A stretch of DNA of 13,937 bases from a virus: UHGV virus genome UHGV-0176194; one strand, given 5' to 3'. The notes below the pieces were generated by a model. It had not been told where the DNA came from and did not search any database. It saw only the letters and a program-made list of their open reading frames with translations. The position numbers and the translations under genes are program-made. Numbering within the stretch: the stretch's first letter is position 1; each line of letters opens with the position of its first letter. Shown here in pieces: positions 2,094 to 7,453 of this stretch.

Positions 2094-2473
2094 CTTTGAT
2101 TAATACACAGACCGGCGAGCTGTCTGATGGCGTGGTGTTTAACGGCACCGTTCATAAAAACTTTGAGCTGCGTCTGCCGGTCATGCGTGATAACGGGCAG
2201 GCACTGGAAGAAACGGAAGAACGCTTTCAGACGGTGGATGGCTTCGCGGCGGATTATTACTACCGCTGTGCGGTGATGGCGGCAACGCTGGTCCGCCTGG
2301 GGGATATTCCGCAGGAAGAACTGACGGCGGAGCTGTTACACGACAACATGACGCCGGACGATTTTAATATTCTGCTGGCATCACGCAACGTCCTGAAGGT
2401 AAAGCGGAACGGCGGGAATCCCGGCTCGCCGGACTCCGGCTCGCAGTCCTCATCCTCGGGCGCTACGGAATAA
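2090..2473 (+). CDS. Tail assembly chaperone (Mu gp41 position; analogous to lambda G and P2 E)
   Basis: 127-aa ORF immediately upstream of the tape measure gene, with a Ser/Gly-rich C-terminus. A 162-nt apparent gap follows, and a second frame is open across it. Confidence 0.7.
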   Translation: MTLINTQTGELSDGVVFNGTVHKNFELRLPVMRDNGQALEETEERFQTVDGFAADYYYRCAVMAATLVRLGDIPQEELTAELLHDNMTPDDFNILLASRNVLKVKRNGGNPGSPDSGSQSSSSGATE

Positions 2474-2487
2474 CCGAAGAGCAAATC

Positions 2488-2646
2488 ATGACCATGAGCC
2501 GTCCCGAGCTGGACGGCTGGCTTGCCGCCGTTGACAGGCTGAACGGCGGCGGCTCAGGAAGGAAGGACACCTCACAGACCACCCGCCAGTCATTTAAATC
2601 CCTCAGAAAGAAACGCAGAAAAGGTAAGCAGAAAAATGGCCGGTAA
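2488..2646 (+). CDS. Candidate frameshift extension of the chaperone (or an independent 52-codon ORF)
   Basis: The frame at -1 relative to the chaperone is open from 2368 to TAA at 2644-2646, with in-frame ATGs at 2488 and 2494. It overlaps the last 106 nt of the chaperone ORF and the first 11 nt of the tape measure ORF. No canonical XXXYYYZ heptamer found in the overlap. Confidence 0.35.
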   Translation: MTMSRPELDGWLAAVDRLNGGGSGRKDTSQTTRQSFKSLRKKRRKGKQKNGR

Positions 2647-4909
2647 TTTCAAAGTTGGCATGACCCTGACTGCGAAGGACGAAGCCTCGCAGGTTCTGGA
2701 AAAGGGACAAAAACAGGTTATCAAAGCCACCGAAGGTGTAACAAAGGCGACACGGAAGGCAGGCGCAGAGCAGAAGCGTACCGAGCAGGAAAGCATTAAC
2801 AGCACGAAAAAGGCCGCAAAAGAGATACAGCGTGCCGCCCGTGCCCGGGAAACGCTCGGTATTCGTGCAGAGCGTGAGATCCGGCGCGAAATTTATCTGA
2901 CGGTTGCCAGTTATAACCGTCTGGCCCGCGCCGGTTTTGAATCTGCGCAGGAGCAGGAACGTGCCATGCAGGCCACCCGGGAAAAAGCCCGGGCACTCAA
3001 GCGTGAACTGGATGGTGTTACTCAGGCTCAGATGAAGATGGCGAAAACGCCTGTTATCCAGGAGCCGGGGCGTTTTGCCCGTGCGGCTGCATTTGGCGGG
3101 AATGCCGTGACAATAGGCGGTGGTATTGCAGCAGGTGCTGCCATTATGGCGCAGCCAGTCAAAAGACAGATGAGCTACGAACGCCAGCTGGCAATGATGG
3201 CCAATACCGCCTTCAGTGATGGTGGGCTGGAGGGGCGCAGGGCTGGTCTTGAGCAGATGAAAAGCAGCATCCGTAACGCGGTGACCTATGGCGGCGGTAC
3301 GAAAGAGGATGCAGCCGAAACGCTGGATGCCCTGCTGAAAGATGGCGGTATTTCATTTGAAACAGCCAGTAAGTGGCTGCCTGAACTGATGAAATACGCC
3401 ACGGCTTCCGGTGCATCAGCGACAGACCTGGCTAATGTGATGCTTAAGGGTAAAAAGACCTTTGGATTCAGGGATGAAGATATTTCCACCGTTCTGAATA
3501 TGGCAATTGCAGCGGGCAAAGAAGGCAGCTTTGAACTGAGCGACATGGCCCGCTGGTTATCTTCGCAACTGGGGTCAGCGTCAGCTGCGGGGATGAGAGG
3601 CAAGGATGATTTTGTCAAGATTCTGGCGCTGAATGAAGCTGCCGCCATTACGGCTGGAAGCAGTGATGAAGCCGGAAATAACGTGTTTAACCTGCTGGCT
3701 AAACTGACCAGCCACGATATTGAAACAGCGGCAAAGAGCATTGATTACAACGGTAAAGGAATTGATTTTTCCGGTACGCTGGTTCAGGCGCGCGAACATG
3801 GACTTGATCCGATAGATGCGCTGTCCAGCCTGATAGACAAAATCGTTGCCAGCGATAAACGCTTTCAGGAGTTGCAAAAGAAACTGGCCTCAGCCCGGGA
3901 TAAAGGCGAGCAGACGGCTGTTTATGATTCGATGGCAAAACTCCTTGAAGGCTTTGGTGTCGGGAAACTGGTTGCAGACCAACAGGCGTTAAAAGCGTTG
4001 CTGGCTTACCGTAACAACCCGGAATACCGGAAAAAGGTTGAAGACGCGATTAATCAGCAGCGCACCCTGCCGGAAGGCCAGCGCGCGGGGGATGTGGATT
4101 TTAACTTCATATCCGGCCTCAATGACTTTAAAACCGAACAGGCTAAAAACACGCTTGAATTTTCACAAATGGACAGCATGAAAAAGCTGGCGGATGCGTC
4201 CGGTACTGTGGCCGATGCCATAAGCTGGGCGGGTGAAAAGTTTCCGGGGCTGACCACGGCGGTGGTGGGTGCCACGACTGCGATTGAAGCGATGACCGCA
4301 GCGGCTCTGACATGGGCCGGGATCAAAATCCTGACAGGAGGTAAACCCGGTGGCAAGGCTGGCGAGGTTGTCGGTGATGTCATTGAAAACACGGTCAAAA
4401 AAGGCAAAGGATTTAAATTCCCCGGCATTGCCGGTAGCCTGCTTTCTTTCGGTGGCACCGTTACGGCACTGGCCACCGCAACCAGCCCGGAAGAAGACGC
4501 CGCCGTCGAAGGAAGCGAAGAACGCTGGAAACGCATCCGCGCCCGATATCCCCAGGAAATCATCGACGCCGCCCGCAAAAAATACCAGCCGTGGTGGCAG
4601 TTTGGGGAAGGCTACTCCACCGAAAACGAAGAGTGGTTGAGGCGCTGGGAGGAAGACAGGAAAAAAGCCGCAGCTGATGCCCTGCCATCACCGGCGCAGG
4701 TCAACAAAGCCGCAGGAAACACAACGCCTGAATCAGCATCAAAGCAACCCGGACGCATCACCCAGCCGGAATATCTCACGCACTGGGGACCACCTGCCAG
4801 CCCCATTAATTTCACCACACAACTGGTGCTCGATGGTCAGGTCGTGGCGGAGGCAGTGAACAAATACAACCTTCAGGACGGCAACAGAGGCACGGGAGGA
4901 ACTTACTGA
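2636..4909 (+). CDS. Tail tape measure protein
   Basis: 757-aa ORF. Charged, coiled-coil-like N-terminus, Gly/Ala-rich hydrophobic segments (GGNAVTIGGGIAAGAAIMA; GATTAIEAMTAAALTWAGIKILTGG) and canonical position after the chaperone. Confidence 0.85.
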   Translation: MAGNFKVGMTLTAKDEASQVLEKGQKQVIKATEGVTKATRKAGAEQKRTEQESINSTKKAAKEIQRAARARETLGIRAEREIRREIYLTVASYNRLARAGFESAQEQERAMQATREKARALKRELDGVTQAQMKMAKTPVIQEPGRFARAAAFGGNAVTIGGGIAAGAAIMAQPVKRQMSYERQLAMMANTAFSDGGLEGRRAGLEQMKSSIRNAVTYGGGTKEDAAETLDALLKDGGISFETASKWLPELMKYATASGASATDLANVMLKGKKTFGFRDEDISTVLNMAIAAGKEGSFELSDMARWLSSQLGSASAAGMRGKDDFVKILALNEAAAITAGSSDEAGNNVFNLLAKLTSHDIETAAKSIDYNGKGIDFSGTLVQAREHGLDPIDALSSLIDKIVASDKRFQELQKKLASARDKGEQTAVYDSMAKLLEGFGVGKLVADQQALKALLAYRNNPEYRKKVEDAINQQRTLPEGQRAGDVDFNFISGLNDFKTEQAKNTLEFSQMDSMKKLADASGTVADAISWAGEKFPGLTTAVVGATTAIEAMTAAALTWAGIKILTGGKPGGKAGEVVGDVIENTVKKGKGFKFPGIAGSLLSFGGTVTALATATSPEEDAAVEGSEERWKRIRARYPQEIIDAARKKYQPWWQFGEGYSTENEEWLRRWEEDRKKAAADALPSPAQVNKAAGNTTPESASKQPGRITQPEYLTHWGPPASPINFTTQLVLDGQVVAEAVNKYNLQDGNRGTGGTY

Positions 4910-6258: not shown

Positions 6259-7453
6259 CGACGACAAAATCAGCCTGGTCATTGCCGGAAGGTCGCATTC
6301 TGACTGGAGCAGTTATCGTATTGACAGCGATTTCCTGAAAGCCGCCGACGGGTGGCAGCTTCAGCTGGGACTGCCTGAAAAGGTGTTCCCGGCGGATATC
6401 GTCCGGGGTGCGCCGGTCCGTTTGCAGGCGGGAGACGAGACGGTCCTCAGTGGTCGCGTGGACAGCGTGCGCCGCAGTGTATCCCGTCAGAGCTGCACGC
6501 TGACCCTGTCCGGGCGTGATGATGCCGCCATTCTGGTGGACTGTGCCGCGCCGGTGTTCAGCGCCAATCAGCTGACGCTGGACGAGGTCATCGACAGGAT
6601 TGTCAGACCGCTGGGGATACAGCGCATCCGTATTCAGGCGTCCGGTGTGTCACGTAATGACAAGGTCGTTATAGAGCCGGGGATGCGTGCGTGGGATGCA
6701 CTGGCCAAAGCTGCCGCCGGTCGCGGCTTATGGCCATGGTTTGAGCCTGACGGGACGCTGGTTGTGGGTGGCCCTGACTACACCACCACGCCGGTGGATA
6801 CGCTGATTCTGAAGCTGGACGGCACCGGGAACAACGTGATGGAGCTGGACGATACCCGGTCCATTAACGGCTGCTTCTCCGAACTTACGGTACTGGCTCA
6901 AAGCCATGCCCGCCGCGCAGACAGCAAAAAACAACTGGCCGTGGTGCCGCTGGATATCTGGAACGAGGACGGCAGCGTGCGCACATTATCCGGGCAGGAC
7001 AGCGGTAATACAGGCAGTGGTCAGACAGGCATTCATAACATGAAAGCCGTGGCCACCGACCCCACCGTGGATTATTACCGCCCGCAGATAATCACCCAGG
7101 GCGACACCAGTAACATGGAGCAGGTGAACTGGCGCGCAAAAAAAATGATGAGTGATGCCCGCCTGTCGGGGCTGGATATCGTCGCACTGGTTGCAGGTCA
7201 TCGCACGGCGGACGGTGTCCTGTGGCAGCCCGGACAGCGTGTGCGAATTGTCAGCGAACCCCACGGCATCGATGCCATCTTTTTTCTGATGGGCCGCGAG
7301 TTCAGCGGAGGCCGGAGCGGGCAGACAACCCGGCTCCGCTTTAAGGAGGATGGCGTATGGATACCAGATGCCTTCCCGCGCGAGAAGAAACGCCATCACC
7401 GCAGGGGCAAAAAGAAAAAAGAGGTCGCCATTGTTAAGGTCTGGGAGAAATGA
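6242..7453 (+). CDS. Baseplate hub protein (Mu gpP-like)
   Basis: 403-aa ORF at the Mu P position, overlapping N by 17 nt and the spike gene by 4 nt. Ends in a Lys/Arg-rich tail. Confidence 0.75.
   Translation: MPMQNNDDKISLVIAGRSHSDWSSYRIDSDFLKAADGWQLQLGLPEKVFPADIVRGAPVRLQAGDETVLSGRVDSVRRSVSRQSCTLTLSGRDDAAILVDCAAPVFSANQLTLDEVIDRIVRPLGIQRIRIQASGVSRNDKVVIEPGMRAWDALAKAAAGRGLWPWFEPDGTLVVGGPDYTTTPVDTLILKLDGTGNNVMELDDTRSINGCFSELTVLAQSHARRADSKKQLAVVPLDIWNEDGSVRTLSGQDSGNTGSGQTGIHNMKAVATDPTVDYYRPQIITQGDTSNMEQVNWRAKKMMSDARLSGLDIVALVAGHRTADGVLWQPGQRVRIVSEPHGIDAIFFLMGREFSGGRSGQTTRLRFKEDGVWIPDAFPREKKRHHRRGKKKKEVAIVKVWEK

Follow-up and report, generated by a model that had tools for sequence, protein, structure and literature searches.

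A predicted -1 ribosomal frameshift in the tail assembly chaperone gene of a Mu-like, contractile-tailed E. coli prophage

In bacteriophage lambda, two overlapping open reading frames (ORFs) that lie between the major tail gene and the tape measure gene are connected by the G/GT frameshift, which yields an abundant short product and a rare fusion (Levin, Hendrix and Casjens 1993; Xu, Hendrix and Duda 2004, 2013, 2014; summarised in PMC5009743). Here, we describe a similar arrangement in a stretch of 13,937 nucleotides (nt) from UHGV virus genome UHGV-0176194, referred to below, as a whole, as the window. In the window, as in lambda, two overlapping ORFs are found between the tube gene and the tape measure gene, namely a tail assembly chaperone gene (G) and a downstream segment in the -1 frame (T), and we propose the same pattern of an abundant G and a rare fusion (GT). 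The window chaperone was modelled, and the HK97 tail assembly chaperone was the best match to the model; like its HK97 homologue, the window protein is thus predicted to have the tail assembly chaperone fold. The locus is unlike lambda in that the P-site codon lies in G_GUA rather than G_GGA, the T part is short (80 residues) and without detectable sequence similarity, the phage has a contractile tail of the Mu type, and the frameshift is a prediction from sequence.

The architecture of the tail module is like that of Mu, with homologues of the sheath (L), tube (M), chaperone, tape measure, N, P, Q, V and W proteins. The corresponding Mu product, gp41 (Mu_56 in GenBank AF083977), is annotated with a “verified -2 translational frameshift” (PMID 15469818). 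The homology to Mu is weak, though collinear: the chaperone of one relative, L120, matched the Pfam family PF23746 Gp41_Mu with 21.7 bits (E 2e-4), which is below the cut-off, while neither the window chaperone nor its fusion gave any match to that family at E values up to 1 (gathering score 27 bits), and they are not assigned to it. Alignment of the window chaperone with Mu gp41 in hhalign was similarly weak, with a probability of 9.8%. Unlike the window, Mu shifts by -2 and into the other frame, at a G-rich site, and the Mu extension is unrelated in sequence.

The E/E+E' pair of P2 is another case of a myovirus chaperone with a -1 frameshift. P2 has a small chaperone (about 90-140 residues) with a short -1 extension (about 50-80 residues), located between the tube and tape measure genes, and its slippery sequence is a T-rich canonical heptamer, unlike that proposed here. 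The window resembles P2 in its contractile tail, small chaperone and short predicted -1 extension.

Similarities to other recoding systems are found at the slip site itself. Most relatives of the window carry the heptamer of E. coli dnaX, A_AAA_AAG. The window is like IS1222 in having an A_AAG tetramer in the A site together with a P-site codon that re-pairs imperfectly, and like T7 gene 10 (G_GUU_UUC) in its P-site motif, G_GU. In dnaX and the insertion sequence (IS) elements, stimulators have been demonstrated (an upstream Shine-Dalgarno (SD) sequence, a hairpin or a pseudoknot), whereas the window offers only an unproven candidate hairpin. The finding is best described as a predicted, unannotated tail-chaperone frameshift of the lambda G/GT kind on a site of the NNA_AAG type.

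Reading frames and the proposed slip site

A programmed -1 ribosomal frameshift very probably makes a second, longer form of the chaperone, the G-T fusion. The exact slip site at 2398-2404 is also probable, although we hold this part with somewhat less confidence. Most ribosomes would read 2090-2473 and release the chaperone G of 127 residues, while a minority would slip back by one nucleotide at G_GUA_AAG, where GUA occupies the P site and AAG the A site. In this slip, the pairing of the only tRNA-Lys of E. coli would move from AAG to AAA, and that of the P-site tRNA-Val, imperfectly, from GUA to GGU. GCG at 2404 would be read next, and translation in the -1 frame would end at the TAA at 2644-2646. 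The slippage itself, any stimulator and the role of the T part are what we infer from the sequences; the frameshift efficiency is probably a few percent or less. By analogy with lambda G/GT, the tape measure protein would be the target of both G and GT while the tail is assembled, at a fixed, low GT:G ratio. One A inserted at the slip site (GGTAAAAG) would put G and T in one frame. The features are as follows:

2090-2473, + strand: tail assembly chaperone gene “G”; zero-frame product of 127 residues, 13.9 kDa, isoelectric point (pI) 4.6
2368-2473, + strand: overlap of 106 nt in which the zero and -1 frames are both open; recoding concerns only 2398-2473
2398-2404, + strand: proposed -1 slip site, G_GTA_AAG, from the position of the homologous motif and the switch of the selected frame
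2401-2646, + strand: -1-frame “T” segment; AAA re-read at 2401-2403, 80 codons at 2404-2643, TAA at 2644-2646
2405-2438, + strand: candidate hairpin in a GC-rich segment; predicted fold of -17.3 kcal/mol, unproven
2488-2646, + strand: 52-codon ORF with ATG start; RefSeq WP_000178828.1, a hypothetical protein, in a 99.3% identical E. coli prophage
2636-4909, + strand: tape measure protein gene, 757 residues (PHROG 794, E 1e-241; Pfam PF10145 PhageMin_Tail)

The chaperone ORF, which matches PHROG 508 (“tail assembly chaperone”) with an E value of 1e-40, terminates with TAA at 2471-2473. A preliminary description of this DNA had placed the chaperone end at 2473 and the tape measure start at 2636, leaving a gap of 162 nt (2474-2635), and all of these coordinates are correct. 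It had also given the -1 frame as open from 2368 to 2646, in agreement with the TAA codons that we find at 2365-2367 before it and at 2644-2646 after it. The translation of this frame reads ...GITEEQIMTMSRPELDGWLAAVDRLNGG... The +1 frame is closed, being open only at 2403-2534, and a +1 or -2 shift was rejected on these grounds. The open stretch of 93 codons is unremarkable when taken alone: the -1 frame as such is within chance, because other alternative-frame ORFs of similar length (96-102 residues) occur elsewhere in the same GC-rich window. Its significance comes from the comparative evidence.

Homologous loci were gathered in two rounds, using the chaperone as the query and then an alignment of the -1-frame peptide. 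This gave about 14 loci at first, and 71 distinct loci once duplicates had been removed. Searches of deposited phage genomes at the DNA and protein levels returned only Klebsiella phage ST405-OXA48phi1.1 and two Ralstonia phages; a scan of genome contigs added only 3 loci, and a metagenome scan found no relative. Since the deposited phage genomes gave almost no relatives, the comparison rests on prophage and metagenome loci.

The preliminary description had found no canonical slippery heptamer in the overlap and had supposed that the site would be non-canonical. Both points held: there is no in-phase X_XXY_YYZ anywhere in 2090-2473, and the proposed site, G_GTA_AAG, is a non-canonical sequence that is homologous to a canonical A_AAA_AAG or G_GGA_AAG in relatives. 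Sorted by their homologous heptamer, the 71 distinct loci include 46 with A_AAA_AAG, 18 with G_GTA_AAG (the window among them), 5 with G_GCA_AAG and 1 with G_GGA_AAG. The heptamer is canonical in 47 of the 71, and the only element common to all of them, at the same position, is xxA_AAG. A slippery sequence is thus found at a conserved place within the overlap, as in other G/GT-type systems, and that of the window is near-canonical. The position of the site is further delimited by stop codons. In 33 A_AAA_AAG loci and two G_GTA_AAG loci (L086 and L090), a -1-frame stop lies directly 5' of the motif, and in these 35 loci the -1 frame opens 3 nt ahead of the slip codon. The zero frame, in turn, ends as early as 39-45 nt 3' of the motif. 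The slip site is therefore bracketed by the stop positions in the two frames.

A_AAG is the most slip-prone tetramer in E. coli (PMC5009743; PMC4066793), because the single E. coli tRNA-Lys can re-pair with AAA. A_AAA_AAG is the motif used in E. coli dnaX and, together with G_GGA_AAG, is among the three most efficient heptamers in that organism (PMC4066793). Sites of the form NNA_AAG are known to support -1 frameshifting in bacteria, as in IS1222 (G_CGA_AAG) and B. subtilis cdd (A_CGA_AAG), with an efficiency that depends on how the tRNA on the 5' codon wobbles, and G_GU is known as an imperfect P-site motif from T7 gene 10 (PMC5009743). The literature that was searched contained nothing relevant on the exact heptamer, GGUAAAG or GGTAAAG. 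A heptamer on which both tRNAs can re-pair, as in the canonical dnaX and IS3 types, is present in relatives but not in the window, where the P-site shift from GUA to GGU keeps at most two of three pairs.

Selection on the extension frame and fused homologues

Downstream of the motif, it is the -1 frame that is conserved. The upstream part of the -1 peptide (GKAERRESRLAGLRLAVLILGRYGITEEQIM) is kept down to relatives in which the chaperone is only 38% identical, and the conservation of the -1 peptide 5' of the ATG (KAERRESRLAGLRLAVLILGRYGI[TS]E) exceeds that of the zero-frame tail (NPGSPDSGSQSSSSGATE), which is rich in Ser and Pro and varies in content and length between relatives. Zero-frame residues 107-127 of the window chaperone are predicted to form a disordered tail, rich in Ser, Pro and Gly. 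In the 28 codons from the slip site to ATG 2488, for which starts, stops and identities were counted over 31 representatives, the mean pairwise identity is 0.58 in the -1 frame vs. 0.36 in the zero frame. None of the 31 representatives has a -1-frame stop in this interval, compared to 24 with a stop in the zero frame, and a possible start codon (ATG, GTG or TTG) is found among the 28 -1 codons in only two of them, and not in the window. The overlapping ORF thus has a conserved N-terminal part that lacks a start, as in systems of the G/GT type.

A switch of the selected frame can also be seen in the variability of codon positions. In the 30 codons 5' of the site, the most variable positions are the zero-frame third positions (0.60 vs. 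0.41 and 0.29; p=2e-8), while in the 28 codons 3' of the site, they are the third positions of the -1 frame (0.49 vs. 0.33 and 0.30; p=3.5e-4), and the zero-frame third positions are not the most variable there (p=0.92). The same switch of phase is present within the window's own subfamily, represented by 8 diverged sequences (p=1e-4). Purifying selection thus passes from one frame to the other exactly at the motif, and acts on the extension frame from there on, in the manner of G/GT-type systems.

The predicted GT protein would consist of G residues 1-105 followed by 80 residues from the -1 frame, for a total of 185 residues with a translated mass of 20.9 kDa and a pI of 9.3. The predicted junction reads ...NVLKVK up to the slip and AERRESRLAGL... 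after it. The junction had previously been put at about residue 120, and is placed here instead after residue 105, between K105 and the following Ala. The T segment (KAERRESRLAGLRLAVLILGRYGITEE...), which contains the conserved motif LAGLR..LALGRYGI, is conserved across relatives. We take the 2488-2646 ORF to be the C-terminal two-thirds of this segment rather than a gene of its own. At the end of the extension, the final ≈25 residues, encoded at 2560-2646, are extremely basic (SFKSLRKKRRKGKQKNGR) in all relatives, and the T part has a pI of 11.5. Given this composition, the tail may bind nucleic acid or an acidic partner.

Homologues that carry the extension as a fusion, the lack of which had been named earlier as a possible objection, do exist. 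In L121 and L134, nine A's (L121:1495-1503; L134:1792-1800) replace the eight found elsewhere, resulting in a single ORF of 174 residues. L137 and L138-L140 have six A's (near “CTTAAAAAAGCG”), giving single ORFs of 170 residues directly 5' of the tape measure gene, and this A6 form recurs, as L138-L140 come from three separate samples. In the relatives, then, an A8 run leads to two ORFs, and A9 or A6 to one in-frame ORF of 170-174 residues. A phage with only the in-frame GT would be without free G unless it shifted the other way; the A6 and A9 forms may therefore be either real variants or homopolymer errors. Two further loci, L135 (with an A7 run and a fragmented tape measure gene) and L136, were discarded as fusions because their assemblies are ridden with indels. 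The same applies to P0032, P0041, P0042 and P0126, which look fused or extended in assemblies full of indels. It is also possible that the A8 run permits transcriptional slippage in relatives; for the window, where the run at the site is just three A's long, transcriptional slippage was rejected. Taken together, the comparative data strongly support the earlier proposal that ribosomes leave the chaperone frame by a -1 shift of the G/GT type and enter the frame downstream.

Stimulator candidates and alternative explanations

Several observations weigh against a programmed frameshift at this site. The window heptamer is not canonical, and there are 26 in-phase A_AAG tetramers in the window's genes, so that the motif alone proves nothing. 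In E. coli reporters, slippage on A_AAG by itself is close to background, and a strong pseudoknot is needed to raise it to as much as 5.6% (PMC4066793). The predicted hairpin, which is made up of an outer stem (2405-2408/2435-2438), an inner stem of 7 bp (2410-2416/2425-2431) and a loop (2417-2424), is no better than that of shuffled sequence (z -0.6). Nor is there any covariation in the 8-sequence subfamily alignment, in which six of the seven inner pairs are constant and compensatory changes are lacking. No SD-like element was found upstream at a useful distance. Sequencing errors in homopolymers could account for some of the fused relatives, as they clearly do for L135, and among the database proteins there is no clean fusion in the window's close G_GTA_AAG group, where P0032 and P0126 are the indel-ridden cases mentioned above. 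In addition, the folds of 27 representatives revealed no conserved structure shared with the A_AAA_AAG relatives, and a search of Rfam returned a chance match only, and nothing relevant.

The segment that includes the candidate hairpin is nevertheless unusual in its conservation. A stretch of 34 nt at 2404-2437 (GCGGAACGGCGGGAATCCCGGCTCGCCGGACTCC) is almost invariant in the GGNAAAG subfamily, even though the chaperones there are only 55-66% identical, while the equivalent stretch varies freely in the A_AAA_AAG relatives. This invariance may reflect dual coding, a lineage-specific stimulator in the form of an RNA element or a pause signal, or both. A more speculative reading, which we put forward as a tentative possibility only, is that the window lineage exchanged an ancestral, highly efficient A_AAA_AAG for a weak site of the hexanucleotide type, G_GUA_AAG or G_GCA_AAG, and compensates for the loss with a new stimulator in 2404-2437. 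In such an exchange, stimulation would come from an RNA hairpin, from pausing at the rare codon CGG, or from an effect of the nascent peptide.

The preliminary description had offered an independent 52-codon gene starting at ATG 2488 as a different account of the whole observation. As a complete account it fails, since the 28 preceding -1 codons are conserved and startless, and the SD sequence is poor. It is possible, although we doubt it, that the 52-codon ORF is translated alone in addition to being part of GT, from ATG 2488 or 2494, by re-initiation after the chaperone stop 14 nt upstream. There would then be three products: G, GT and a free, basic T' peptide of 5.9 kDa. The RefSeq and IMG gene callers do annotate this ORF, PHROG 3114 is built from such short ORFs, and the Met at window position 2494 is conserved in most relatives. 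Moreover, the chaperone stop overlaps the -1-frame Met in many relatives, either as ATGA (in L120, at 1594-1597, and related loci) or as TAATG (within “AATAATG” in L072-L076 and L025), which is the classical arrangement for translational coupling. This overlap follows from the Met-Ser/Thr (ATG A..) in T, however, and so need not be selected. In the window, an earlier TAA leaves a gap of 14 nt before ATG 2488 (2471-2494 region). The Met at 2488 is not conserved, and L100-L104 and L132 have Leu in place of that at 2494. The predicted pairing of the anti-SD sequence with the regions of ATG 2488 and ATG 2494 is only -2.1 kcal/mol, compared to a background mean of -3.0 across the window and values of ≤-4.6 for 11 of the 13 other gene starts. 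Above all, translation from its own start cannot explain the 28 conserved, startless codons upstream; independent initiation therefore cannot be the only route, but it may be an additional one.

The remaining alternatives call into question the place of the frameshift, its present function or its existence. A slip elsewhere, in the GC-rich segment at 2405-2440, is very unlikely. Such a slip might occur in the P site while the ribosome waits for the rare CGG at 2405-2407, or on another non-canonical sequence; the nucleotide invariance of 2404-2437 in the window's subfamily exceeds any obvious need of dual coding, the codon that follows AAG is the rare CGG in most relatives, and the comparative bounds permit any position from 2398 to about 2440. 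However, the invariant stretch is absent from the 46 A_AAA_AAG relatives, which share only A_AAG and then CG with the window, and there is no in-phase slippery tetramer or heptamer in 2405-2440. A hungry-codon slip of tRNA-Lys on AAG in the P site would in any case still be an A_AAG slip and lead to the same protein. It is slightly less plausible again that the locus is a decayed relic, in which the efficient A_AAA_AAG has been lost, GT is no longer made in useful amounts and the T frame has merely not degraded so far. G_GTA_AAG would indeed be expected to be far less slippery than A_AAA_AAG (PMC4066793), and no stimulator was demonstrable. Against this, GGNAAAG motifs occur in 24 distinct loci, with chaperone identities down to about 55%, and the T frame of the subfamily is under purifying selection (p=1e-4; identity 0.78 vs. 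0.57) and never contains a stop. Furthermore, the GT:G ratio in lambda is only about 1:30 (PMC5009743), so a weak site can suffice. Least probable of all, and in our view very remote, is that no frameshift occurs, and that the small ORF is only an independent gene while the open -1 frame is a by-product of the GC-rich sequence and of constraint on the chaperone C-terminus. The missing canonical heptamer, the open alternative frames of similar length elsewhere in the window and the separate genes in public annotation are consistent with that explanation. It does not account for the third-position coding signature, which is present in the -1 frame 5' of the ATG and absent from the zero frame, nor for a -1 peptide that is conserved without a start codon down to relatives with 38% identity, where the zero-frame tail is variable. 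In relatives, canonical heptamers are found exactly where the -1 frame opens, and in-frame fusions exist. We thus retain a programmed -1 frameshift at or near G_GTA_AAG as the preferred explanation.

Gene neighbourhood, annotation and significance

From the ORF list and family searches, the window carries the tail genes of a prophage that is Mu-like and contractile-tailed. Those 5' of the chaperone are:

50-292: DUF2635 protein
285-1706: sheath
1719-2093, + strand: tail tube gene, 124 residues (PHROG 185 tail tube protein, E 3e-35)

The tube gene is immediately 5' of the chaperone gene, and its stop overlaps the chaperone start (ATGA). The T frame and the tape measure gene share 11 nt, from the ATG of the latter to the end of the former. 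On the 3' side of the tape measure gene are homologues of Mu N, P (gp44), gp45, gp46, gp47 and gp48, followed by the tail fibre genes. The gene order is thus sheath, tube, chaperone, small ORF, tape measure and then the Mu-type baseplate, and the gene pair sits between the tube and tape measure genes, as expected for a chaperone of the G/GT type.

Two consecutive sets of tail fibre genes are located at 10162-13887. The first consists of a collar/fibre-repeat protein (10162-11091) and a lambda gpK-like fibre assembly protein (11091-11666), while in the second an ORF whose N-terminal domain is of the prophage tail fibre type (11711-13327) precedes a DUF4376 ORF (13237-13887). The TTG start listed for the DUF4376 ORF would make it overlap the gene before it by 90 nt, and is probably wrong. 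Highly slip-prone in-phase heptamers are also found in the fibre genes, with C_CCA_AAG inside 10162-11091 and both A_AAA_AAG and A_AAA_AAA inside 11711-13327 (positions 10479-10485 and 12271-12277; also 12121-12127 and 7138-7144). At these heptamers, the -1 frame closes within ≤11 codons, giving truncated products only, and they are probably incidental.

Of 5426 complete E. coli genomes, 57 contain similar DNA (90-99% identity). In the 99.3% identical copy in RefSeq, 2090-2473 and 2488-2646 are listed as two separate hypothetical proteins, without ribosomal slippage. Public annotation splits the chaperone and the small ORF into two hypothetical proteins both in E. coli RefSeq genomes (L001, NZ_CP196316.1, 3391-3947) and in Klebsiella phage ST405-OXA48phi1.1 (L002, MK388859.1, 3010-3518), in which a textbook A_AAA_AAG site is left unannotated. 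None of the matches from protein searches is named as a slippage product. Searches of Pfam and NCBIfam recognised neither the chaperone nor the extension, and a sequence search of solved structures returned no meaningful match. The C-terminal part of the extension is matched by PHROG 3114, of “unknown function”.

Frameshifting in the chaperone gene is expected in nearly all long-tailed phages, and this general picture is unchanged. The frameshift is absent from the annotation records that we checked, and the main value of the finding lies in correcting the annotation and in a natural series of four heptamers. A single protein family appears to use A_AAA_AAG, G_GGA_AAG, G_GCA_AAG and G_GUA_AAG for the same recoding event, and this series could be used to test the effect of P-site re-pairing on -1 efficiency in E. 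coli. Recognition of GT would give a function to a family of orphan small ORFs found across prophages of the Enterobacteriaceae. If the exchange of an efficient site for a weak one with a new stimulator is true, this family would represent a natural re-tuning of the G:GT ratio through the co-evolution of slip site and stimulator, and the A6, A8 and A9 run lengths in the relatives would be alternative states, in which the chaperone and its extension are either fused or encoded as two ORFs.

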